A stretch of 64,000 nucleotides of DNA from Escherichia coli (lineage in GTDB: Bacteria; Pseudomonadota; Gammaproteobacteria; Enterobacterales; Enterobacteriaceae): NCBI RefSeq assembly GCF_051903065.1, contig NZ_CP178438.1. One strand, 5' to 3'. Both the position numbers and the translations under genes were made by a program. The notes under the pieces were generated by a model. It made no database searches, was not told the origin of the DNA, and saw only the letters and a program-made list of their open reading frames with translations. Below are positions 21,282 through 55,724 of this stretch, piece by piece (position 1 is the first letter of the stretch; each line of letters begins with the position of its first letter).

Positions 21282-22541
21282 GTGTCGCAAGATAACAACT
21301 TTAGCCAGGGGCCAGTCCCGCAGTCGGCGCGGAAAGGGGTATTGGCATTGACGTTCGTCATGCTGGGATTAACCTTCTTTTCCGCCAGTATGTGGACTGG
21401 CGGCACTCTCGGAACCGGTCTTAGCTATCATGATTTCTTCCTCGCAGTTCTCATCGGCAATCTTCTCCTCGGTATTTACACTTCATTTCTCGGTTACATT
21501 GGCGCAAAAACCGGCCTGACCACTCATCTTCTTGCTCGCTTCTCGTTTGGTGTTAAAGGCTCATGGCTGCCTTCACTGCTGCTGGGCGGCACCCAGGTTG
21601 GCTGGTTTGGCGTTGGCGTGGCGATGTTTGCCATTCCGGTGGGTAAGGCAACCGGGCTGGATATTAATTTGCTGATTGCCGTTTCCGGTTTACTGATGAC
21701 CGTCACCGTCTTCTTTGGCATTTCGGCGCTGACAGTTCTTTCGGTGATTGCGGTTCCGGCGATCGCCTGTCTTGGCGGTTATTCCGTGTGGCTGGCCGTT
21801 AACGGCATGGGCGGCCTGGACGCCTTAAAAGCGGTCGTTCCCGCACAACCATTAGATTTCAATGTCGCGCTGGCGCTGGTTGTGGGGTCATTTATCAGCG
21901 CGGGTACGCTCACCGCTGACTTTGTCCGCTTTGGTCGCAATGCCAAACTGGCGGTGCTGGTGGCGATGGTGGCCTTTTTCCTCGGCAACTCGTTGATGTT
22001 TATTTTCGGTGCAGCGGGAGCGGCGGCACTGGGGTTGGCGGATATCTCTGATGTGATGATTGCTCAGGGCCTGCTGCTGCCTGCGATTGTGGTGCTGGGA
22101 CTGAATATCTGGACCACCAACGATAACGCGCTCTATGCGTCGGGTTTAGGTTTCGCCAACATTACCGGTATGTCGAGCAAAACCCTTTCGGTAATCAACG
22201 GTATTATCGGTACGGTCTGCGCATTATGGCTGTATAACAATTTTGTCGGCTGGTTGACCTTCCTTTCGGCAGCTATTCCTCCGGTGGGTGGCGTGATCAT
22301 TGCCGACTATCTGATGAACCGTCGCCGCTATGAGCACTTTGCGACCACGCGTATGATGAGTGTCAATTGGGTGGCGATTCTGGCGGTCGCCTTGGGGATT
22401 GCTGCAGGCCACTGGTTACCGGGAATTGTTCCGGTCAACGCGGTATTAGGTGGCGCGCTGAGCTATCTGATCCTTAACCCGATTTTGAATCGTAAAACGA
22501 CAGCAGCAATGACGCATGTGGAGGCTAACAGTGTCGAATAA
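21282..22541 (+). CDS. codB: cytosine permease, 419 aa (GTG start)
   Basis: NCS1-family multi-TM transporter; GTG start preceded by AAAAAGGGGGA Shine-Dalgarno; overlaps codA. Confidence 0.9.
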
Positions 22542-33702: not shown

Positions 33703-33731
33703 ATCATGCCATACCGCGAAAGGTTTTGCGC
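33703..33731 (-). promoter_or_regulatory. lacI promoter (-35 GCGCAA, -10 CATGAT)
   Basis: Reverse complement reads GAATGGCGCAAAACCTTTCGCGGTATGGCATGATAGCGCCCGGAAGAGAGTCAATTCAGGGTGGTGAATGTG, the classical lacI promoter/leader; the -10 hexamer overlaps the stop codon of the upstream gene. Confidence 0.85.
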
Positions 33732-34657
33732 CATTCGGCGGGGCTGACGCCGAAGTGAGATTTAAAATGCTGACGCCAGGTCACAGGTGAGAGAAAACCC
33801 ACCTCAGCCGCTATCCGCTCAACGGGCAACTGACTGGATCCCAACAGTTCCTGGCTACGGCGTAAGCGTTCAGTAATGAGCCATTCGGCGATACTCGAAC
33901 CGGTCGCTTTCATAAAATGGCGAGTTAATGTGCGGCGACTCATCATTACTCGCTGCGCCAGCGAGTCGAGATCATGCTGTTGCGCAATGTTTTGCCGCAG
34001 GTAATCCAGCAGGAGGTTTATGCGTTCATCATGGGTATTTTTCGGCACCGGTTGCTCAATAAACTGCGCCTGACCGCCGGTGCGATATGGCGGTACGACC
34101 ATCCGTCGGGCAATATGGTTAGCATAGTCGCTGCCAAAATGTTGCCGAACAATATACAAACAGCAATCCAGCGCCGCGGCAGTACCGGCAGAGGTAATAA
34201 TGCCGTCATCGTCTACGTACAACGCGTTAATATCCAGATGTGTTTGTGAAAAACGTGCCTGAAATTCACGCTCGAACTCCCAGTGCGTGGCGGCACGCTT
34301 ATTTTTCAGTAAACCTGCATAGCCGAGCACAAACGTGCCCAGGCAAAGCCCGACAATCTGTGCGCCGTTATCCCGTGCGGTCGTTAAGGCTTCCAGCAGT
34401 TTTTGTGGCGGTTTTTGTGTAATTGTTCCCCAGTAAGGAATTATCACAATATCCGCCTGGATGACTGCGGTATAGTCATGGGTGGCGGTTACGGAAAACC
34501 CATCGGCAGAGTCCACGTTTCCCGGCTTTTCAGCGCAGATAATTACGTGAAAGTGTTTTTTCTCCGCCATTTTTTCGCTAAATACGATAAACGGTACGGA
34601 AAGGTGAAAAGGACTAAAACCGGCAACGGCGATAATGGCAACAGTTAGCGGGCGCAT
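33704..34657 (-). CDS. GlxA-family transcriptional regulator (DJ-1/PfpI-like domain plus AraC-type HTH), 317 aa
   Basis: N-terminal class-I glutamine-amidotransferase-like domain with conserved Cys context (IVGLCLGTFVL) and C-terminal AraC HTH (SLAQRVMMSRRTLTRHF ... VGFLSPVTWRQHFKSHFGVSPAEWRK). Confidence 0.8.
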   Translation of the reverse strand: MRPLTVAIIAVAGFSPFHLSVPFIVFSEKMAEKKHFHVIICAEKPGNVDSADGFSVTATHDYTAVIQADIVIIPYWGTITQKPPQKLLEALTTARDNGAQIVGLCLGTFVLGYAGLLKNKRAATHWEFEREFQARFSQTHLDINALYVDDDGIITSAGTAAALDCCLYIVRQHFGSDYANHIARRMVVPPYRTGGQAQFIEQPVPKNTHDERINLLLDYLRQNIAQQHDLDSLAQRVMMSRRTLTRHFMKATGSSIAEWLITERLRRSQELLGSSQLPVERIAAEVGFLSPVTWRQHFKSHFGVSPAEWRKTFRGMA

Positions 34658-34676
34658 AACACTCTTTATCTCCGAA

Positions 34677-35465
34677 TTAGAATGTCAACGTTTCACCATC
34701 TTCTGGTACGTTCACAAATTCGATAATTTGATTATCTCTGGCGTATTCCTTGAGCGCATCACGCGTCAGCAAACAGTGGTTTACGGCCTCCATATGTGTC
34801 GCGACAATTTGCGCTTCTGGCAGGGTAAAATGTGTTTTGAGAATATCTTCTGCTCCCATAATTATCGCGCCATGCCCCAGAACATGCGCAAATCCGGCAT
34901 TCAACACAACCACTTCTGGTTGGAAAGTTAGCATTGTAACCTCGACGTCGTCACGCCAGAGGGTATCGCCAGCGAGATAGAGCGTTTTCTCTGTCGGGTG
35001 CTGGAAAACAACGCCGCAGGCTGCGCCTAAACGCTTCGCCATAGCCGGGTCGGCATAGGTGCGATCGGAGCCGTGCTGCCCTGTCGTTTTATGCAGAGTA
35101 ATATCGCCAAATTTAGTCTCGTCGGTAAGTACGGTAAGATGCGTAAATCCTTGTTTATTCAGTGATTCAGCATCTTGCTCATTTTGCACATAAATCGGTT
35201 TATCTTTAGGGACGACGCGGGAGGCTGTTTCGTCCCAGTGATCTTCATGCAAATGGGTCACGATTAGGGCGTCAACGTTGAGTAACGTTGTTAAATCGCA
35301 CGGTAATTCTACCGTTGGATTGCGGATTTCTGCGCGTGCCGTTCCGGCAAAACCCGGATAACTTCCTTTAGGCGCAAGTAACGGGTCGATAAGAAATGTT
35401 TTGCCAGCGTATTGGATAATTTGGGTGGCATTACGAATTTGCGTAATTTTCATGATTTGCTCCAC
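34677..35465 (-). CDS. metallo-beta-lactamase-fold hydrolase, about 258-262 aa
   Basis: MBL zinc motif THLHEDH and downstream His/Asp ligand residues; tightly linked (19-bp gap) to the GlxA-like regulator. Confidence 0.8.
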   Translation of the reverse strand: MEQIMKITQIRNATQIIQYAGKTFLIDPLLAPKGSYPGFAGTARAEIRNPTVELPCDLTTLLNVDALIVTHLHEDHWDETASRVVPKDKPIYVQNEQDAESLNKQGFTHLTVLTDETKFGDITLHKTTGQHGSDRTYADPAMAKRLGAACGVVFQHPTEKTLYLAGDTLWRDDVEVTMLTFQPEVVVLNAGFAHVLGHGAIIMGAEDILKTHFTLPEAQIVATHMEAVNHCLLTRDALKEYARDNQIIEFVNVPEDGETLTF

Positions 35466-47194: not shown

Positions 47195-47470
47195 CTATTT
47201 AAGATAGGCACGAACCAGTTCAATAGTGTCGTCAACGGATTGGCTGACTTCGCGGCTGTAGCAGTCATTTCGGTCAAACGTTTCCCGGATATGGCTTTCA
47301 AGCACTTCAGCCATCAGCCCGTTAGCCGCGCCCCGAACGGCAGCAATCTGTTGGAGTATGGCACGGCATTCGGCATCACCCTCCAGCGACCGTTCCAGAG
47401 CATCAATCTGCCCCCGAATACGACGAACTCGAGTAAGGACCTTTTTCTTCTCTTCCGGAGTACTGGGCAT
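47195..47470 (-). CDS. frmR: formaldehyde-responsive CsoR/RcnR-family repressor, 91 aa (ORF open to 47491)
   Basis: Small all-helical repressor preceding frmAB; start at [10 protein letters not shown]. Confidence 0.9.
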
Positions 47471-47496: not shown

Positions 47497-47545
47497 ATAC
47501 TATAGGGGGGTATGCTATATGTCAATGCATACCCCCCTATAGTAT
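47497..47545. promoter_or_regulatory. frmRAB operator: long palindrome with G6/C6 tracts
   Basis: ATACTATAGGGGGGTATGC-tatatgtcaat-GCATACCCCCCTATAGTAT immediately upstream of frmR; G/C-tract flanked by AT-rich inverted repeats is typical of RcnR/CsoR-family operators. Confidence 0.75.
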
Positions 47546-47629
47546 ATAACACTGGAGAATAATTGTTGTCCGAAGCCTAACCAGGTGAACGGTCCCTCAA
47601 GACAGATGGGGACCGTTTATGTGCTATTT

Positions 47630-48676
47630 TTATGCCGCATCCGCTAAAACAAACATCCCGTAAGGATGGATTTCGAGGTAATAGTGCTCACCAATATCGG
47701 GCTGTAAACGGGTGGCGTTTACTTGTAATAAAATCTCCTGTCCATGCCACTCTACGGTCACTTCGTACTGCGGCCCCATGTAGGCGACATGGCGAATAAC
47801 ACAACGCTGACTCTCTTCGCCGTGATTGCTTAAGGTGATGGCTTCCGGGCGAACGCCGACGGTGCCGCTACCTTGCGCCGGGAAATGCGCCGCGCGCGGC
47901 AGGCGATAACCGTAGATATCGACATACTCTTCGCTAAAGTTCGCCGGGAACAGGTTGGCGTCGCCCATAAAACTTGCCATAAATCGGGAGGCTGGCTGAC
48001 GATAGAGATCCTGCGGTGAGCCAATCTGCATGATGTGACCTTTATTCATCACCAACACAGTGTCGGACACCGCGAAAGCTTCACTTTGATCGTGAGTGAC
48101 GTAGAGCGACGTGATATTAAACTGCTTTTGCAGCTCGCGGATCTTATCGCGCATACTGCGGCGCAGGTTGGCATCGAGGTTACTTAACGGCTCATCAAAC
48201 AGCAGCACCTTTGGCTTGAGGATCAACGCGCGGGCCAGTGCCACACGCTGTTGCTGACCACCGGAAATCTGATCGACATAGCGGTCCTCGAAGCCTTCCA
48301 GATCCACCATTGCCAGCGCCTCCTTCACCCGCTGTTTCACTTCGCTACGCGAGACGCCAAGCATCTTCAGCCCGTAGCCAACGTTTTCACCCAGCGACAT
48401 ATGCGGGAACAGAGCGTATGACTGAAACACCATGCAGATATCGCGCTGTTGAATGGAACGATGCGTGACATCTTCGCCATCAATAAAAATTTGCCCTTCG
48501 CTCGGTTTTTCCAGCCCGGCAACCAGACGCAAAATGGTGGTTTTGCCACAGCCGGAAGGACCGAGCAGCGTCACCATTTGCCCTTGTGGAATGGTGAGAT
48601 TGATATTGTCGATAACCGTATTACTGCCGAATCGTTTAGTGACGTTGCGCAGTTCAACAAAATTTTTCTGACTCAT
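47630..48676 (-). CDS. afuC: ABC transporter ATP-binding subunit (AfuC-type), about 348 aa (ORF open to 48688)
   Basis: Walker [10 protein letters not shown], signature [15 protein letters not shown], Walker [12 protein letters not shown]; GGAG Shine-Dalgarno before the ATG at 48676. Confidence 0.8.
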
Positions 48677-48687
48677 AGTGCGCTCCA

Positions 48688-50766
48688 TTACGCCTGGTTT
48701 TTGGCTTTAGAACGGGAGATACGAGCTTCTCCGATCAGCCAGTCAAAGAGGAAAATAATCGCCAGCATCACCACGATCAGAATCGAACCATAGGCGATGG
48801 CTACGCCATATTCGCCGTCTTCAACGCGGTTAAGAATGTAGGCGGTTGCCACGCGGGTGTCCGGCGTGACGAGAAAGACGATGGCGCTGACCGTCGTGAT
48901 GGCCCGCACAAAGCTGTAGATCAGGGCCGAGAGAATGGCCGGACGCAGCAGTGGCAGTAAAATGTGGGTTATGGTTCGCAAGGAACCTGCGCGCAGGCTG
49001 AGTGAGGCTTCATCCAGCGATTTGTCGATCTGCCCCAGGCCTGCAATCCCGGCGCGAATACCCACCGGAACGTTACGCATCACCATCGAGATAATCACAA
49101 TTGCCGCCGTTCCGGTGAGATAAACCGGAGCGCTGTTAAAGGCAAGAATATACGAAACGCCCGCCACCGTACCCGGTACGGCAAAGCACAGCATGGTGGT
49201 GAACTCGATGGTCTTTTTGCCTTTGAATTGTTGACGCACCACCACCCAGGCGATGAGCAGGCCAAAGATAGCGGTAATGGGAGCGGCAATCCCGGCGTAG
49301 AGCAGGGTATCCAGCAGTGAAGGCCACGCGCCGTCGCTCATTCCCTGACCAAATAGCTTGATAAAGTTATCCAGCGTCAGGGTGTAGTCCACGCCCCAGT
49401 TCACCGTGAAGCTGCCGTAGAAAATGCTGCCGTAGAGCAGGGCGTTAAAGGCAATCCATATCGCAAGTATGGCGACCACGCTCCACACCAGGGTGACCGG
49501 TAGCGGCTGGACGTCGCCACGGTAGGATTTGCCGGAAACCGTGACGTAAGAGCGTTTACCAATCCACATATACTGGATGCAGAACACCAGCAGCGAGAAC
49601 AGCAGCAGGAAAGCGCCAAGGGTGCTGGCGGCCTGATAATCCAGCTGCGAGCCGGTAATATAGAAGTAAATTTGCGTCGCCAGTACGTCGAAGTTACCGC
49701 CAAGTACCAGCGGGTTACTGAAATCAGCCAGTGACTGTACCACGACGATTAAAAAGGCATTGGCGAGTGCGGGCTTCAACAACGGCACAAACACGCCGTT
49801 AAAGGTTTGCCAGCGGCTGGCGCGCAGGGTGTAGGAGGCCTCTTCCAGCGAGGGATGAATGGTTTTAATGGCCCCGTCGAGGATCATAAATGCCATTGGC
49901 GTGAATGCCAGAACCTGTGCCAGCCAGATCCCGGTAAAACCGTACAGCCAGTTGGTGTTGGTCAGCCCAAACCACTCCACCATAAATTCCGTAACATAGC
50001 CGGAGCGCCCCATCATGAGCGTCACGCCTAAGCCGACCACAAACGGTGGCGTAACGATGGGCAAAATGGAAAAGATGCGACCAATAATGGCGCTGCGTTT
50101 AGCGATGCGCGTGGTATAAATCGCCAGCACCAGGCCGAAGAAAGTACAGCCTATCCCCACCGCTATCGACAAGACGATAGAGTTGACGATCACCTGAACA
50201 ATATGTGCCTGCGAGAGCACGGTCATAAACGCCAGCGGGGCGAACTCTCCCGCGTCGTTGGTGAACATCGGGATAAAAATGGCGATGCTCGGCCAGACGA
50301 TAAAAATGCCAATCAGCGCCACAATCGCAATCAGTGAGCCGATCACGAAGCGGTCGCCACCCAGCCATTCGAGGCGGGTTAAGGCCAGCGTCATAATCGC
50401 GCCTAGTTCGACAAACAGCACGATGGCGGCGTAGCCTAAACCGCGTCCAACCACGGTGGCGCTGATGACGATAAACGCCATACAGAGCAATGCCCAGCCG
50501 GCATCGAAATAATGACGGCTACGTTGTTCGCGCGTGGCCTCACTAAACGGGCGGACCAGCAACAGGCTCGGGAGTAAATACCACAGCCAGCTGATATTAA
50601 AATGCGACCAGCCATAAGCCTCGAGGATCTCATCACTCGTGGACTCCAGCAGGCCATAATCGAGGCTCCAGCTCGGCAACAGTATAAATGCCAGCCAGCC
50701 CAGCAAAACCCAAAGGAAAATCGCATCCCGCTTTTTCACGGGATGGAGTGCAAGTGTCTGTGACAT
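48688..50766 (-). CDS. afuB: ABC transporter permease with duplicated membrane domain (AfuB-type), about 692 aa (ORF track starts at a TTG at 50817)
   Basis: Very hydrophobic roughly 700-aa protein with two permease halves; stop overlaps afuC start. Confidence 0.75.
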
Positions 50767-50834
50767 AGTAGTTCCGGTATGGTTGGCCGGGGCAGGCGTT
50801 TGTGCTGCACCCGGCAAATACGCCTAATGCGGGT

Positions 50835-51866
50835 TTATTTACCCATCTTCACTTCGCTGACCCATTTATTAATCAATGCCTTACGAACATCCGTGGAACC
50901 ATATTTATCCATGTCGTAGTTGATTAATTTCAGGTCGTCGAGCTTCAGCGAATTTGGCGACGTTTCGGCGGTGGTATTGGTCAGGATCTGATAAGACTTC
51001 CCTTTCTTCCACGCCAGTTCCTGAGCTTCTTTTGATAATACCCAGTCCACAAACAGTTTGGCGTTGTCGAGGTTGCGCGCGCCTTTCAGAATGCTGACGC
51101 CGCCAATTTCGTAGCCCGTACCTTCACACGGGGAAATCAACTCCAGCGGCGCGCCCTGTTCTTTTTCCAGCGAGTAGTCATGCAGGAAGCCAATACCAAT
51201 CGCCGTTTCGCCACGGGCGGCGTTACGTGCCGGGGCTATGCCTGATTTGGTGTACTGAGAGACGTTGGCGTTCAGTTGTTTTAGATAATCAAAGGCCTGA
51301 TCTTCCCCCCACAGCTGCGCAAAAGTAGCCAGGGCGGTGTAGGCAGTACCGGAACTTTGCGGATCGGCAATTTGAATTTCGCCTTTATATTCCGGTTTGG
51401 TGAGATCTTTCCAGCACTTCGGCACCGGCAGGTTTTTCTCTTTCAGACGATCGGTGTTTACGCCAAAACCGAGGATCCCCACATAAACGGCAGAGGACAG
51501 ATTCCCTTTCACTTTTGCCGGATCGCGGAATTTCTCCATGATCTGCTCAAGGGTAGGGGATTTATACGCCTGTAGCAGGCCCATCTCGCCAGCCTGCGAT
51601 TGCGGGTCTAAAGTGCCGCCGTACCAGACGTCAGCCTGGGGGTTTTTCTTTTCAGCATCGACTTTTGCCAGGGTGCTTCCGGAACCGTTGCGGATAAACG
51701 AGGTTTTTACATCATATTTCTCGCCAAACGCTTTGGTTTCGGCCTCACACATTTCATTGGTGGCGCTGCAATAGACCACCAGCCGGCCTTTTGCCTGCGC
51801 GGCACCCGTTAAAGTCGCCAGCGCAACGGCAGAAGCAATCAGAGTAGAGGTAAAGGTCATTTTCAT
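50835..51866 (-). CDS. afuA: periplasmic substrate-binding protein (AfuA/FbpA-type), 343 aa (start at MKMTFTST; ORF track extends upstream into the next gene)
   Basis: Signal peptide MKMTFTSTLIASAVALATLTGAAQA; start ATG overlaps the stop of the upstream MFS gene (ATGA). Confidence 0.75.
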   Translation of the reverse strand: MKMTFTSTLIASAVALATLTGAAQAKGRLVVYCSATNEMCEAETKAFGEKYDVKTSFIRNGSGSTLAKVDAEKKNPQADVWYGGTLDPQSQAGEMGLLQAYKSPTLEQIMEKFRDPAKVKGNLSSAVYVGILGFGVNTDRLKEKNLPVPKCWKDLTKPEYKGEIQIADPQSSGTAYTALATFAQLWGEDQAFDYLKQLNANVSQYTKSGIAPARNAARGETAIGIGFLHDYSLEKEQGAPLELISPCEGTGYEIGGVSILKGARNLDNAKLFVDWVLSKEAQELAWKKGKSYQILTNTTAETSPNSLKLDDLKLINYDMDKYGSTDVRKALINKWVSEVKMGK

Positions 51867-53179
51867 TGTTTTATCCTTCGAGCGTGAGTGGTGGTGATGC
51901 CCGCCATCAGTAACGGCATCAGCAGTAAACCCATAAGTACTGCGGCGACCGAGAGTAAACTGAACATTCCCGGCCAGCCGTAGCGTTCGATGACCAGCGA
52001 CAGCGGCCAGCCTGCCAGCGCCGCGCCAAGGTAAGCGAACAGGCCGAGAAATCCGGTGATTGAACCCGCCGCAGCTTTGTGCCCACACTCCACCGCCGCA
52101 AGTCCAATCAGCATTTGTGGGCCAAAGACGAAAAAGCCCACGGTAAAAAAGCACACTGCCAGCAGAGCGTAGTGATGAACCGGTGCCAGCCACAGTGCGG
52201 CGACTGACACCATCAACCCCAACGTGAACAGCAAAATCATTGGCGCTCGTTGCCCGCTAAACAGCAAATCCGATCCCCATCCGGCAAATAACGCGCCGAG
52301 TAAGCCGCCCACTTCAAACAGCATTACCGTGGCGTTGGCGCTGAGCAGGTTGACACCGTGGCTTTCCGTCAGCCAGATATTGCCCCAGTCGTTAAGCGCA
52401 ATCCGGATCACATAAACCAGTACATAAGAGACGCCCAGTAGCCAGATCAGCGGATTTTGCAGCATGGTGGTGCGCAACATTTGCCACAGCCCCATCGGCG
52501 GACTTTGTTGTTCCTGACGTAACTCCAGCGGATCGTGACGCCAGTGACCAACTGTCGGTAATCCCTCTTCCTGGGGCGTGCCTTTGAGTTGTAGCGTTAA
52601 CCAGATCCCTAATGCCATGCTGATTATCCCCGGTGTCAGCATCGCGGCCTGCCAGCCCCACCAGTGGGCGGCAAAGGCGCTAATCAGCGGAATAATCGCT
52701 CCGCCAATGTTGATCGACATATTCCAGCAGCCCCACCAGAAACCGCGCTCATTGCGTGAGTACCAGTGGGTCAGCAAGCGGGCACACGGTGGCCATCCCC
52801 AGCCCTGAAAAAAACCGTTCAGTGTCCAGACCACAAGCAGAAGCGTAAGTGATTCGCCAAAGGCAAACACCACGTTCAATAACCCGGTGGCGAACAAGCC
52901 GACGCCCATAAAACCGCGTTGTCCGTGGCTGTCATGCCACAGTCCGGCGGTAAATTTCGACAATCCGTAGCTGAGATAAAACAGCGAACCCAGCAGGCCA
53001 ATGTCGCCTTTATCCAGTCCGAGGTCGGTTTGTAGCGCCGGAAGGACGTAATTCACGCTTTTTCGCGTCAGATAAAATGCGGCGTAGCCAATAATCATGC
53101 ACATCAGCAATCGCGGACGTAATGCCCGGTAGCATTGATTAATTTCTCTCGCTGAACGCGCGTGCATGGTTGTCTCCAT
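51863..53179 (-). CDS. UhpC-like MFS sugar-phosphate sensor/transporter, 438 aa
   Basis: 12-TM organophosphate:Pi-antiporter-family protein of UhpC size, downstream of UhpB/UhpA-like genes. Confidence 0.75.
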   Translation of the reverse strand: METTMHARSAREINQCYRALRPRLLMCMIIGYAAFYLTRKSVNYVLPALQTDLGLDKGDIGLLGSLFYLSYGLSKFTAGLWHDSHGQRGFMGVGLFATGLLNVVFAFGESLTLLLVVWTLNGFFQGWGWPPCARLLTHWYSRNERGFWWGCWNMSINIGGAIIPLISAFAAHWWGWQAAMLTPGIISMALGIWLTLQLKGTPQEEGLPTVGHWRHDPLELRQEQQSPPMGLWQMLRTTMLQNPLIWLLGVSYVLVYVIRIALNDWGNIWLTESHGVNLLSANATVMLFEVGGLLGALFAGWGSDLLFSGQRAPMILLFTLGLMVSVAALWLAPVHHYALLAVCFFTVGFFVFGPQMLIGLAAVECGHKAAAGSITGFLGLFAYLGAALAGWPLSLVIERYGWPGMFSLLSVAAVLMGLLLMPLLMAGITTTHARRIKQ

Positions 53180-53251
53180 GTTGCTGACTATATGAAAATG
53201 AAAGTGAAAGGGGATGAGAGAAAATCCGGGATACCTAAGACTTTTTCCTGG

Positions 53252-54793
53252 TTATCCGGCGATTTGTTGCAAAAATGTGGGCAAGTTAACAATTACCCGC
53301 GTGCCGTGCTGTTTTTCGAGCGTTAAGTCGCCGCCCAGGGCGCTGACGCGCTCACGCATCCCCTGAATGCCAAATCCGGCCATTTTCCCGCTGGCGATCC
53401 CCACACCGTTGTCGCTGACCTCCAGATGCAATACCTCTCCCTGCTGGCGCAGGATAATCGTCACTTCGCTGGCTTCGGCGTGTTTACAGACGTTATTGAG
53501 CAACTCCTGCAATAACCGATACAAGGTAAAGCGCACCGTTTCGTTTTCTGGTGTGGAGTTCAGTTGATAGGCAAACTGGCAATGAATGCCGCGTTCACCA
53601 AAGGCAAATTCATTAATCAGATGCAACAACGCTTCGCGAAATGTCAGTTCATCAAGCGCGGGAGGCCGCAACTGGCGCAGCAATTGGCGGGTGGAGAGAT
53701 GAATGCGGCGGGCGAGCTCATTGATTTGGCTGGCTGCGGATTGAATTTGCGCCGGATCACGCGCCCGCTTCACCAGTTGCGACTGGATCTGAATGGCGGT
53801 GATGTTCTGACCGATTTCGTCGTGCAGCTCTCGCGCCAGGTTTTTTCGCGTGTCCTCCTCGGTGTGGATCAACTTTTCCGCCAATGCCCGCCGCGCTGCC
53901 AGCTCGGCCTCCAGCCGTTGTCGGTAATGGTGCAGGTTTAGCGCCAGATGTTGCTGGCGACTGATGGCAATGCCCAGGCCAATTCCCAGCAAGGCCTGGG
54001 TCGCGAGGAAAATCTCCAGCTCCACCAGGTTACTAAAGCCCACGCCAATCTGGCGGGCGATGGTGATCATCATGCTGCCCAAAAGCCCGGAGAGTACGCC
54101 ACCTTGCCAGCCAAATTTCCACGCCATCACCACATTGGGCAAAAAGACCACGATCAACAGCAGACGCTCAATTTCAGGTGACAGCACCATCTGAGTGCCG
54201 ATACCAATGATAAAAAACAGGCTACACCAGATGATTAAAGAGGTACGCAAGGGGGGATTATGCGTATCGAGTCCCAGGAGCTGGTAGCGATGCTGCTGGC
54301 GCAGAAACTCAAAGATAAGATAGACAAACGGCGTCAGTAATACGCCGCCGGTAAATGAGGTCAAACCCGGCAGCATTATTGGGCCTGACATAAAAGGGGA
54401 GAGCAGGGCGGTATTCAACAATGAAGCTGCCGTGACAGTGGCTAACAGCAACGTCAGACGCTGCCAGTAAAGTGGAAAACGGTGCCAGAAGTTTTGCGCA
54501 AGGAGGACAGGAAACAGGCTAATAACCGGCGTTGCCAGCATGAGATAACCGTTCAATAGCTGCTCACTATGGAGCCAGAACATCATCAGCAAAGGGGGGA
54601 GTACCAACGCAGGCCAGTAGCGGCGAGAGAGCAAAATAACAAGGGCGAGATAAACTCCCTGCGGGAGAAACAACACCGCCTGTTGACCGTTATTGGTCAG
54701 ATAAAAGCTGAGCGTCCACAGCATCAGCCAGCCGGTTCCCCAGGCCAACACAATAAACAGCGAAATCACCCAATGACGAAGATTGCGCGACAT
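53252..54793 (-). CDS. UhpB-like sensor histidine kinase, 513 aa
   Basis: N-terminal multi-TM sensor region, HisKA_3 H-box ELHDEIGQNITAI, ATPase region (VSDNGVGI). Confidence 0.8.
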   Translation of the reverse strand: MSRNLRHWVISLFIVLAWGTGWLMLWTLSFYLTNNGQQAVLFLPQGVYLALVILLSRRYWPALVLPPLLMMFWLHSEQLLNGYLMLATPVISLFPVLLAQNFWHRFPLYWQRLTLLLATVTAASLLNTALLSPFMSGPIMLPGLTSFTGGVLLTPFVYLIFEFLRQQHRYQLLGLDTHNPPLRTSLIIWCSLFFIIGIGTQMVLSPEIERLLLIVVFLPNVVMAWKFGWQGGVLSGLLGSMMITIARQIGVGFSNLVELEIFLATQALLGIGLGIAISRQQHLALNLHHYRQRLEAELAARRALAEKLIHTEEDTRKNLARELHDEIGQNITAIQIQSQLVKRARDPAQIQSAASQINELARRIHLSTRQLLRQLRPPALDELTFREALLHLINEFAFGERGIHCQFAYQLNSTPENETVRFTLYRLLQELLNNVCKHAEASEVTIILRQQGEVLHLEVSDNGVGIASGKMAGFGIQGMRERVSALGGDLTLEKQHGTRVIVNLPTFLQQIAG

Positions 54794-55422
54794 TAATGCC
54801 CCGCCAGCAGATGGTGGTCGAGCGCAAAATGTACCAGTTCAATGGTGCTATGGCAGTTCAGTTTTCCCAGCACATTGGCGCGATGCACATGTACCGTTTT
54901 ATGACTGAGTTCGAGTTTAAAGGCGATCTCTTTAACGCTGTCTCCTTTGACCAGTAAATCAAACACTTCACGTTCTCGTGGGGTGAGAATTTCCAGCGCC
55001 TGGGCGGGTTGCCCGCCGCCGCGTAAAGCCCGAATCGCATCGGCACAGAGATAATGCCCGCCCAGCCCGACCGAGCGCACCGCCTGTACTAACTCTTCCG
55101 GCCCACAGCGTTTGGTTAAATACCCGCTGGCACCGGCATCCAGCGCGCTTTGCACAAAGGTTGGCGCGTCATAAATGCTAAGAATAATGGCGCGAAATTG
55201 CGGTTTTTGTGCACGCAGGCGCTTAAGCAAACTGAGGCCGTTTTCGTCCGGCATGGCAATATCAATGACGGCAACATTGACGTCATCACGGATTAATGCC
55301 GACCATGCCTGCGCGGCACTACTGTACTGACCAATGACCTCCAGATCGTCTTCCAGAGAGAGTAATTGTGCGAAGCCAGAGCGCACCACCACATGGTCAT
55401 CCACCAGCACTACCCGAATCAT
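54793..55422 (-). CDS. UhpA-like NarL/FixJ-family response regulator, 209 aa
   Basis: Receiver domain (VVLVDDH ... VIDIAMPD) plus C-terminal LuxR-type HTH; stop overlaps kinase start. Confidence 0.8.
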   Translation of the reverse strand: MIRVVLVDDHVVVRSGFAQLLSLEDDLEVIGQYSSAAQAWSALIRDDVNVAVIDIAMPDENGLSLLKRLRAQKPQFRAIILSIYDAPTFVQSALDAGASGYLTKRCGPEELVQAVRSVGLGGHYLCADAIRALRGGGQPAQALEILTPREREVFDLLVKGDSVKEIAFKLELSHKTVHVHRANVLGKLNCHSTIELVHFALDHHLLAGH

Positions 55423-55724
55423 ACTTTTCTTCTCTTATTATCTAATTCTCCTATCATGCATCACGGCGCGGCGCTGGCAATCAACCAGCGACAGATATGG
55501 AATGGATGTAACAAAATGGCAATAATTTGCCGGAGCGCGCACATCTTATCTGGCTTGTGAACCGGCGGGATACGTTCGCCAAAACCGCAAAATGCGCAAA
55601 CTCGCTAACCATTGCCGATTTTTTTCTAAAAACGCTTTGTTCTTAACAAGACCTTTTAATTCCTTTATCAAACTGACCCGCAACGAAATACTGCTCCCAT
55701 AACAAGACAGGGGAGCAGACAATC

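Follow-up and report, generated by a model that had tools for sequence, protein, structure and literature searches.

Six genes between frmR and tauA

The 64,000-nt stretch of Escherichia coli DNA analysed here (contig NZ_CP178438.1, hereafter the window) carries, between frmR (47195..47470) and tauA (from 55725), six genes on the minus strand that code for a response regulator, a histidine kinase, a UhpC-like protein of the major facilitator superfamily (MFS), a periplasmic binding protein, a fused permease and an ATPase of the ATP-binding cassette (ABC) type (Table 1). By sequence comparison, this six-gene island (47563..55686) is the already described O-island 20 (OI-20). It is best explained as a Uhp-like signalling relay whose output would be an ABC importer of sugar phosphates, a reading to which we give a probability of about 0.7. 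The identity of the locus and that of the transporter, taken jointly, are close to certain.

Table 1. Features of the frmR-tauA locus, with positions in the window
Feature	Coordinates	Strand	Basis
Variable segment relative to K-12 (O-island 20 of enterohaemorrhagic E. coli, EHEC)	47563..55686	.	homology to K-12 stops at 47562 and restarts at 55687
Response regulator FusR / Z0463 (REC + LuxR/GerE helix-turn-helix), UhpA paralogue	54793..55422	-	99.5% to WP_000621918.1
Histidine kinase FusK / Z0462 (MASE1 + HisKA_3 + HATPase_c), UhpB paralogue	53252..54793	-	99.2% to WP_000089287.1
UhpC-like MFS protein Z0461	51863..53179, likely true start ATG 53167	-	52% identity to UhpC
Periplasmic binding protein AfuA (Z0460 by position)	50835..51866	-	match to PDB 4R72-75
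Fused two-domain ABC permease AfuB (Z0459)	48688..50766	-	99.0% to O157:H7 WP_000084161.1
ABC ATPase AfuC (Z0458 by position; legacy name FbpC)	47630..48676	-	99.7% to O157:H7 protein
CRP-like site TGTTAACTTGCCCACA, in the 3'-terminal part of the kinase gene	53276..53291	-	same columns as uhpT CAP site GTGATGCATCTCAC
Imperfect dyad CCAGGAAAAAGTCTTAG (family consensus CTAGGAAnnATTCCTAG), proposed regulator binding site	53235..53251	-	conservation and uhpT register
Conserved TCTCATCC box, -35 region without a good -35 hexamer	53212..53219	-	spacing conservation
Putative -10 hexamer TATAGT of the z0461-afuABC promoter	53187..53192	-	in register with uhpT TACAAT
Weak sigma-70-like match TTGCCA-16-CATGAT, candidate fusRK promoter	55453..55480	-	consensus scan only, 9/12
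Hairpin, 12 nt past the stop of afuC; probable 3' end of the transcription unit	47589..47617	-	fold and position

The assignment to OI-20 follows from two observations: all six products are 99.0-99.8% identical to the proteins encoded between frmR and tauA in the O157:H7 strain Xuzhou21, and an EDL933 supplementary table ties three accessions of that Xuzhou21 locus to Z0459 (afuB), Z0462 and Z0463, with Z0461 given as 'UhpC'. Site, gene set and protein sequences are therefore those of OI-20 in O157:H7 EDL933/Sakai, while the carrier differs, being a non-O157 strain with a 100% match to a human faecal isolate from Ecuador. In EHEC, OI-20 is described as carrying afuABC together with the fucose-sensing FusKR system (Sit et al. 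2015, PMC4546632), and the same six genes also lie between frmR and tauA in O145:H28. A previous, sequence-only reading of this DNA recognised neither OI-20 nor FusKR, and the locus is that published island. Its description of six co-directional minus-strand genes holds, since all are present as open reading frames and are annotated in RefSeq records that match the window exactly or at 99.5% identity. It was also right that K-12 carries other genes here (yaiO and genes disrupted by insertion sequences), the K-12 annotation of the frmR-tauA interval comprising yaiO, a transferase gene, IS2, yaiP and yaiS. Besides, alignment to K-12 places the island boundaries close to the 47546..55724 that it had proposed.

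The three upstream genes had been read as UhpA/UhpB/UhpC-like, which is borne out by their best family matches. The regulator is 48% identical to UhpA, finds its best NCBIfam match in UhpA (193 bits, cut-off 258) and has a phospho-acceptor motif and a recognition helix (KTVHVHRAN) identical to those of UhpA. The kinase, 35% identical to UhpB and best matched over its full length by the UhpB model (380 bits, cut-off 408), contains the Pfam domains MASE1 (5e-60), HisKA_3 and HATPase_c with intact H, N and G boxes, and is classified by its sequence as a UhpB paralogue, not an equivalog. As for the MFS protein, it shares 52% identity with UhpC against 29% with UhpT, scores above the cut-off of the NCBIfam UhpC model (587 vs 564 bits) and below that of the UhpT model (214 vs 497 bits). 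It keeps the equivalents of R46 and R275, the two arginines common to UhpT and UhpC, and has UhpC-type residues in place of D388, K391 and K294 of UhpT.

Compared with the canonical E. coli UhpABC-UhpT system, the trio of regulator, kinase and MFS sensor shows the same domains, the same 1-nt regulator/kinase overlap and the identical recognition helix. The two differ in that the identities are only those given above, in that the output of the island is an ATP-driven ABC importer whereas that of Uhp is the antiporter UhpT linked to inorganic phosphate, and in that the island sensor gene lies inside the proposed regulated unit, while uhpC belongs to the uhpABC unit. In the Uhp system, the UhpB-type MASE1 kinase depends on its MFS partner for sensing. 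Island-positive genomes carry the canonical uhp genes too.

Regarding the transporter half, solved structures of AfuA (PDB 4R72-4R75) match the binding protein at E 1e-168, and the structure 8X1A, itself 99% identical to a Vibrio metoecus/V. cholerae-group cluster representative, matches it at 2e-173, whereas true ferric-binding proteins do so only at ~1e-12. It thus stands far from the ferric-iron binders with which it might have grouped. The five ligand residues whose importance in AfuA was defined by mutations (S37, T150, H205, D206 and E229; PMC4546632) are all kept (5/5), as S62, T174, H229, D230 and E253 in the window, and an alignment of 11 sequences shows no variation at any of them. 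Two of the five positions are changed in the pyridoxal-phosphate paralogue P5PA (HA...A vs HD...E here), which sets the binding protein apart from P5PA, and an identity as pyridoxal-phosphate binder was rejected on these residues. Directly downstream of the binding-protein gene lie the permease, which has the fused two-domain form of AfuABC (BPD_transp_1 domains at residues 210-399 and 500-677), and its dedicated ATPase. The latter shares 99.7% identity with its O157:H7 counterpart and 94% with K-12 AfuC, and passes NCBIfam PRK11432 (700 bits, cut-off 496), a model still named 'ferric'. Published work established that AfuABC is not an iron transporter and restores growth on glucose-6-phosphate (G6P) and fructose-6-phosphate (F6P), demonstrated binding/transport of G6P, F6P and sedoheptulose-7-phosphate (S7P) for the Actinobacillus pleuropneumoniae and Citrobacter rodentium proteins, and confirmed that the OI-20 orthologue of C. 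rodentium transports sugar phosphates (PMC4546632). The AfuA matches, the retained ligand residues and this literature support the assignment of the three downstream genes to an AfuABC importer predicted to take up hexose/heptose phosphates and not iron, as the earlier reading had proposed.

The likeness to the A. pleuropneumoniae system covers the full-length alignment of AfuA with all ligand residues kept and the same fused permease plus ATPase. A difference within the Pasteurellaceae is seen in Gallibacterium anatis (one locus examined), where afuABC stands without Uhp-like genes. There (L088, 12411..13118), the gene that comes after afuABC, in the same orientation, codes for a class B acid phosphatase, and the importer of sugar phosphates is paired differently.

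Distribution of the locus and a conserved promoter in the kinase/MFS gap

A scan of one genome per species yielded 80 Enterobacterales loci, of which 78 had enough upstream flank to be informative. In all 78, the order regulator-kinase-MFS-binding protein-permease-ATPase is found on one strand, in genera including Citrobacter, Klebsiella, Raoultella, Enterobacter, Serratia, Buttiauxella, Rahnella, Yersinia, Erwinia, Brenneria and Photorhabdus. The locus of the V. cholerae group (VCA0682-VCA0687) likewise has the same six genes in the same order, with the same domain architectures and the same dyad (CTAGGAAATATTCCTAG) upstream of the MFS gene; it differs by protein identities to the window of 42-76% and by a 112-nt gap between the MFS and binding-protein genes, which overlap in the window. 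Sensor and transporter, whose coupling was first read from the window alone, make up a conserved functional unit. VCA0686, the V. cholerae orthologue, is part of a characterised hexose-6-phosphate uptake system (PMC4101255).

Among complete E. coli genomes, 518 out of 5426 contain the island, 449 of them with frmR/tauA flanks, and the copy is 90-95% identical in 68 genomes. FusKR has been called specific to EHEC O157:H7 (PMC11644481) and said to be recently acquired, possibly from Enterococcus (PMC11644481, PMC4810492); the distribution found here does not fit a FusKR that is restricted to O157:H7 or of recent arrival. A recent EHEC-specific horizontal acquisition of the frmR/tauA copy finds no support, in that the regulator gene is kept divergent from tauAB, as in the window, in 27/80 species. 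This copy looks like an old Enterobacteriaceae locus that was lost from K-12-type strains.

Other copies and remnants were seen along the way. In the one genome inspected out of the 68, an E. coli O15:H18 of sequence type 69 (ST69; L089, 5023..12815), a 94%-identical six-gene copy occupies another chromosomal site, where it adjoins a tyrosine integrase, IS66 remnants and iha; its homology to the window stops at 47608, within the hairpin listed in Table 1. K-12 (L003, 6001..7406) retains afuC and a 5'-truncated afuB cut by IS1, beside mmuPM. This afuC has 94% protein identity but 85.5% DNA identity to the window, and the pair is a remnant of a second, divergent afu cluster. Finally, a search of E. 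coli genomes with 47546..55724 gave 47 places on plasmids that match some part of the query (53 with a longer query).

Regulatory DNA was sought by comparing the 80 species loci, and promoter elements were counted over 80 sequences, namely the window, 78 species loci and Vibrio. Three elements stand in the kinase/MFS gap at nearly constant distances. The dyad has at most 3/14 half-site mismatches in 80/80 sequences and is centred ~51 nt upstream of the -10 hexamer (near -64 of the predicted start). The spacing from dyad to box is 15 nt in 77/80 sequences and that from box to hexamer 27 nt in 79/80, a TAnnnT hexamer being found at the fixed distance in 79/80. A CRP-like site, conserved across genera, is centred ~40 nt upstream of the dyad centre (near -104).

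This arrangement resembles that of the uhpT promoter. When the E. coli uhpT promoter is aligned to it without gaps, with the -10 hexamers as anchor, 58/131 positions are identical, a value reached by 0/20000 shuffles (33.7 +/- 5.0 identities), and no shift within +/-45 surpasses register 0. In this alignment, the dyad falls on the core of the uhpT inverted repeat (offset -59 vs -60) and TCTCA occurs at offset -27 in both promoters. The uhpT promoter, as described by the Kadner laboratory, has its UhpA element centred at -64 and its CAP site at -103.5, so the island geometry equals that of uhpT if transcription starts near 53180, the position at which we place the start of the z0461 transcript. 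With that start, the layout of a Uhp-type target promoter is found: an inverted repeat near -64, a weak -35 region and, in register with the uhpT CAP site near -103, the CRP-like site. The identification of this conserved uhpT-like promoter is what the present analysis adds, and it suggests that the sensor switches the importer on.

Several other candidates for regulatory DNA were discarded. Between the MFS and binding-protein genes, where an analogue of uhpT's own promoter might have been placed, no conserved block or element was found across the 80 species loci; the two genes overlap in E. coli, Citrobacter, Klebsiella and Serratia, and the spacer differs widely in length elsewhere. The exact dyad match is unique within the window, and a second copy (serving, for example, fusR autoregulation) was dismissed, the 1-mismatch match at 21408 fitting chance. 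No support was found for a resemblance between the dyad and the published FusR site at ler, a gene that lies outside the window: the ler site mismatches the half-sites at 6/14 positions, and 20% of shuffles score as well. Sigma-70-like sites are no more numerous in the region than in shuffles, and the candidate fusRK promoter of Table 1, upstream of the regulator gene, is one such weak match.

Gene starts, junctions and edges of the island

Most junctions are as previously described: the regulator and kinase genes share 1 nt in a TAATG at 54793, and the MFS stop and the binding-protein start overlap in the ATGA at 51863..51866. The gaps between the kinase and MFS genes and between the binding-protein and permease genes measure 72 and 68 nt, respectively. 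At the permease/ATPase junction, the reported TAATG motif at 48688 is present, but its ATG is probably not a real start. The sequence directly after the permease stop reads 'TAATGGAGCGCACTATG', and the ATG at 48676, chosen by the Prokaryotic Genome Annotation Pipeline, is preceded by a GGAG Shine-Dalgarno, located inside 'ATGGAG', which is kept across genera together with this start. The upstream ATG is confined to the group of E. coli, Citrobacter, Klebsiella and Serratia, and the junction is probably an 11-nt gap rather than an overlap. In the same manner, the 'ATGGAG' at 53179 provides a GGAG for the next ATG of the MFS gene, at 53167, and both this GGAG and the second ATG are conserved across genera. 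The MFS gene of the ST69 copy is annotated at 434 aa, and the protein is probably 434 and not 438 aa long. The ATGs at 48688 and 53179 were accordingly both rejected as starts, each being part of 'ATGGAG' and the upstream ATG being absent outside one clade.

The stem-loop reported at the frmR-proximal edge is real, and its stem pairs perfectly over 9 bp (centroid -17 kcal/mol, z = -1.9). That it is a canonical intrinsic terminator is not supported, the terminator scan making no call and the hairpin having no U-tract. In most other genera examined, an unrelated strong hairpin or a classical terminator occurs at the same position, which makes a role at the 3' end plausible.

A few observations concern the surroundings of the island. 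Its right junction lies just 38 nt upstream of the tauA start codon (in 55423..55724), and what remains of the 302-nt regulator/tauA spacer is without similarity to the 615-nt AT-rich yaiS/tauA spacer of K-12, so that island-positive and K-12-type strains must have different control regions for tauA. Just outside the left edge, a long inverted repeat common to K-12 (ATACTATAGGGGGGTATGC ... GCATACCCCCCTATAGTAT, 47497..47545) overlaps a strong promoter-like TTGACA-17-TAGTAT just upstream of frmR; together they are presumably the frmRAB promoter and FrmR operator. Further away, between lacI and mhpR (33704..35453), a matching genome annotates an 'OI-19-encoded virulence regulator OvrA' and a hydrolase of the metallo-beta-lactamase fold, and this annotation amounts to a second EHEC-named O-island in a non-O157 background.

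Proposed mechanism and competing explanations

The UhpC-like Z0461 is hypothesized to detect external sugar phosphate and to signal to the MASE1 kinase FusK, which itself lacks a periplasmic sensor domain and would phosphorylate the UhpA-like FusR. Phosphorylated FusR would bind the dyad at 53251..53235, ~64 nt upstream of the predicted start, and would activate, with CRP, a promoter lacking a -35 element. This promoter would drive z0461-afuA-afuB-afuC as one translationally coupled unit, and AfuABC would import G6P, F6P and S7P at the cost of ATP. Since the sensor gene z0461 lies inside the induced unit, positive feedback may be expected. As for fusRK, it would form a separate upstream unit, possibly with low-level read-through. 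We infer the start site, the activation (not repression), the inducer and the CRP dependence, and we hold this regulatory mechanism to be rather probable, with somewhat less assurance than the reading as a whole. The core of that reading, a Uhp-like sensor coupled to an AfuABC sugar-phosphate importer, was already contained in the sequence-only reading and is supported by family matches, ligand residues and gene order. In addition, the MFS and binding-protein genes overlap or nearly abut, and Z0459, Z0461, Z0462 and Z0463 of EDL933 are each among the genes up-regulated in bovine gut contents. As a precedent, the V. cholerae system is reportedly induced by hexose-6-phosphate through the UhpA homologue VCA0682 (Moisi et al. 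2013, J Bacteriol 195:1800).

Several points weigh against this mechanism. The regulator (193 vs 258 bits) and the kinase (380 vs 408 bits) score under the equivalog cut-offs that NCBI sets for UhpA and UhpB, the palindrome of the E. coli dyad is imperfect, and the CRP-like site overlaps conserved codons (VNLPT), which makes its conservation ambiguous. The transcription start, on which the geometry depends, is a prediction from the DNA. Besides, EHEC work reports that FusK responds to L-fucose, by fucose-dependent autophosphorylation, and that FusKR represses, and does not activate, z0461 and the fuc genes, Z0461 aiding fucose use (PMC6199705, PMC11644481), and a 2026 study found that the fucose-dependent repression of the enterocyte effacement locus (LEE) requires fusKR (PMC12976359). 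The earlier statement that the ligand of this sensor is not established overlooks that L-fucose is the published, though debatable, ligand of FusK/FusR, with ler, z0461 and the fuc genes as targets (PMC4546632, PMC11644481, PMC6199705).

One competing explanation takes this published EHEC model as the whole story: FusK senses L-fucose directly, phosphorylated FusR represses ler, z0461 and fuc, Z0461 is a sugar transporter by which fucose import is improved, and AfuABC is an independent neighbour. It is backed by review articles and other second-hand accounts of Pacheco et al. 2012 (PMC11644481, PMC4810492, PMC6199705) and by the independent genetics of the 2026 study (PMC12976359). As a complete account, we nevertheless consider it unlikely. 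A neighbour independent of the sensor is hard to reconcile with the linkage of the six genes in every informative species locus and in Vibrio, or with an afuA that is translationally coupled to z0461. The linked loci include those of Rahnella, Brenneria and Photorhabdus, genera not known as LEE-carrying attaching/effacing pathogens. Z0461 has UhpC-type and not transporter-type residues and passes the UhpC model, and a UhpB-type MASE1 kinase, as generally known from Uhp, needs an MFS partner for sensing. Moreover, the promoter mirrors an activator-dependent one, with its dyad near -64 and not over the core promoter, and the motif reported at ler is unlike this dyad. The Uhp-like and fucose models differ as to the primary signal and as to whether z0461 is activated or repressed, but they can coexist if EHEC co-opted FusR for LEE control.

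The two remaining explanations concern the transcription unit and the substrate. A single six-gene operon, read from one promoter upstream of 55422, had been favoured in the sequence-only reading, the genes being co-directional with overlapping or short junctions. The terminator scan gave no convincing terminator between the kinase and MFS genes, which makes read-through possible. Such an operon is nonetheless very unlikely given the conserved uhpT-type promoter in between: dyad, TCTCAT box and -10 hexamer keep a near-fixed spacing in 80 sequences, in uhpT register, and the canonical Uhp system likewise separates its regulated promoter from that of the regulatory genes. Two transcription units, fusRK and z0461-afuABC, with the regulator activating the latter, are likely, and the regulated promoter was probably mis-assigned when placed upstream of 55422. 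Even less credible, to the point of being practically untenable, is the legacy annotation of the downstream genes as a ferric-iron ABC importer of the Fbp/Afu 'iron(III) transport system' type. It lives on in databases under labels like 'ferric ABC transporter ATP-binding protein FbpC' or 'iron(III) transport system substrate-binding protein', and it conflicts with a match to sugar-phosphate-bound AfuA that far exceeds any to true ferric-binding proteins, with the retention of every sugar-phosphate ligand residue, and with the demonstration that AfuABC is not an iron transporter and that the C. rodentium OI-20 orthologue transports sugar phosphates (PMC4546632).

Beyond the Uhp-like relay with its importer, a wider and more tentative proposal, which we think somewhat more likely wrong than right, is that the trio in E. 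coli is primarily a Uhp-type sensor for external hexose/heptose phosphates whose ancestral main output is the activation of z0461-afuABC through a promoter like that of uhpT, the EHEC link to fucose and LEE being a secondary co-option or an indirect metabolic effect. The shared recognition helix and the similar dyads suggest, within this proposal, that FusR and UhpA may cross-regulate uhpT and afuABC. The whole would then be a module of long standing in Enterobacterales/Vibrionaceae that K-12-type E. coli has lost, and not a recent EHEC acquisition.

The island was thus already known as OI-20, with a transporter that earlier work studied by structure and in vivo; what is added here is the conserved uhpT-type promoter and how widely the locus is conserved. 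Taken together, these two allow the conflict with the fucose model to be tested directly. A mismatch that could be of importance is that the literature describes an EHEC-specific fucose sensor that represses z0461, whereas the sequence holds a Uhp-like trio fixed beside a sugar-phosphate importer. If the activation model is true, the primary signal and the output of a much-cited virulence-linked two-component system would be redefined, and the control of AfuABC, a colonisation and transmission factor of C. rodentium, would be explained. Finally, cross-talk with UhpA and uhpT would be predicted, which would be relevant to fosfomycin uptake.

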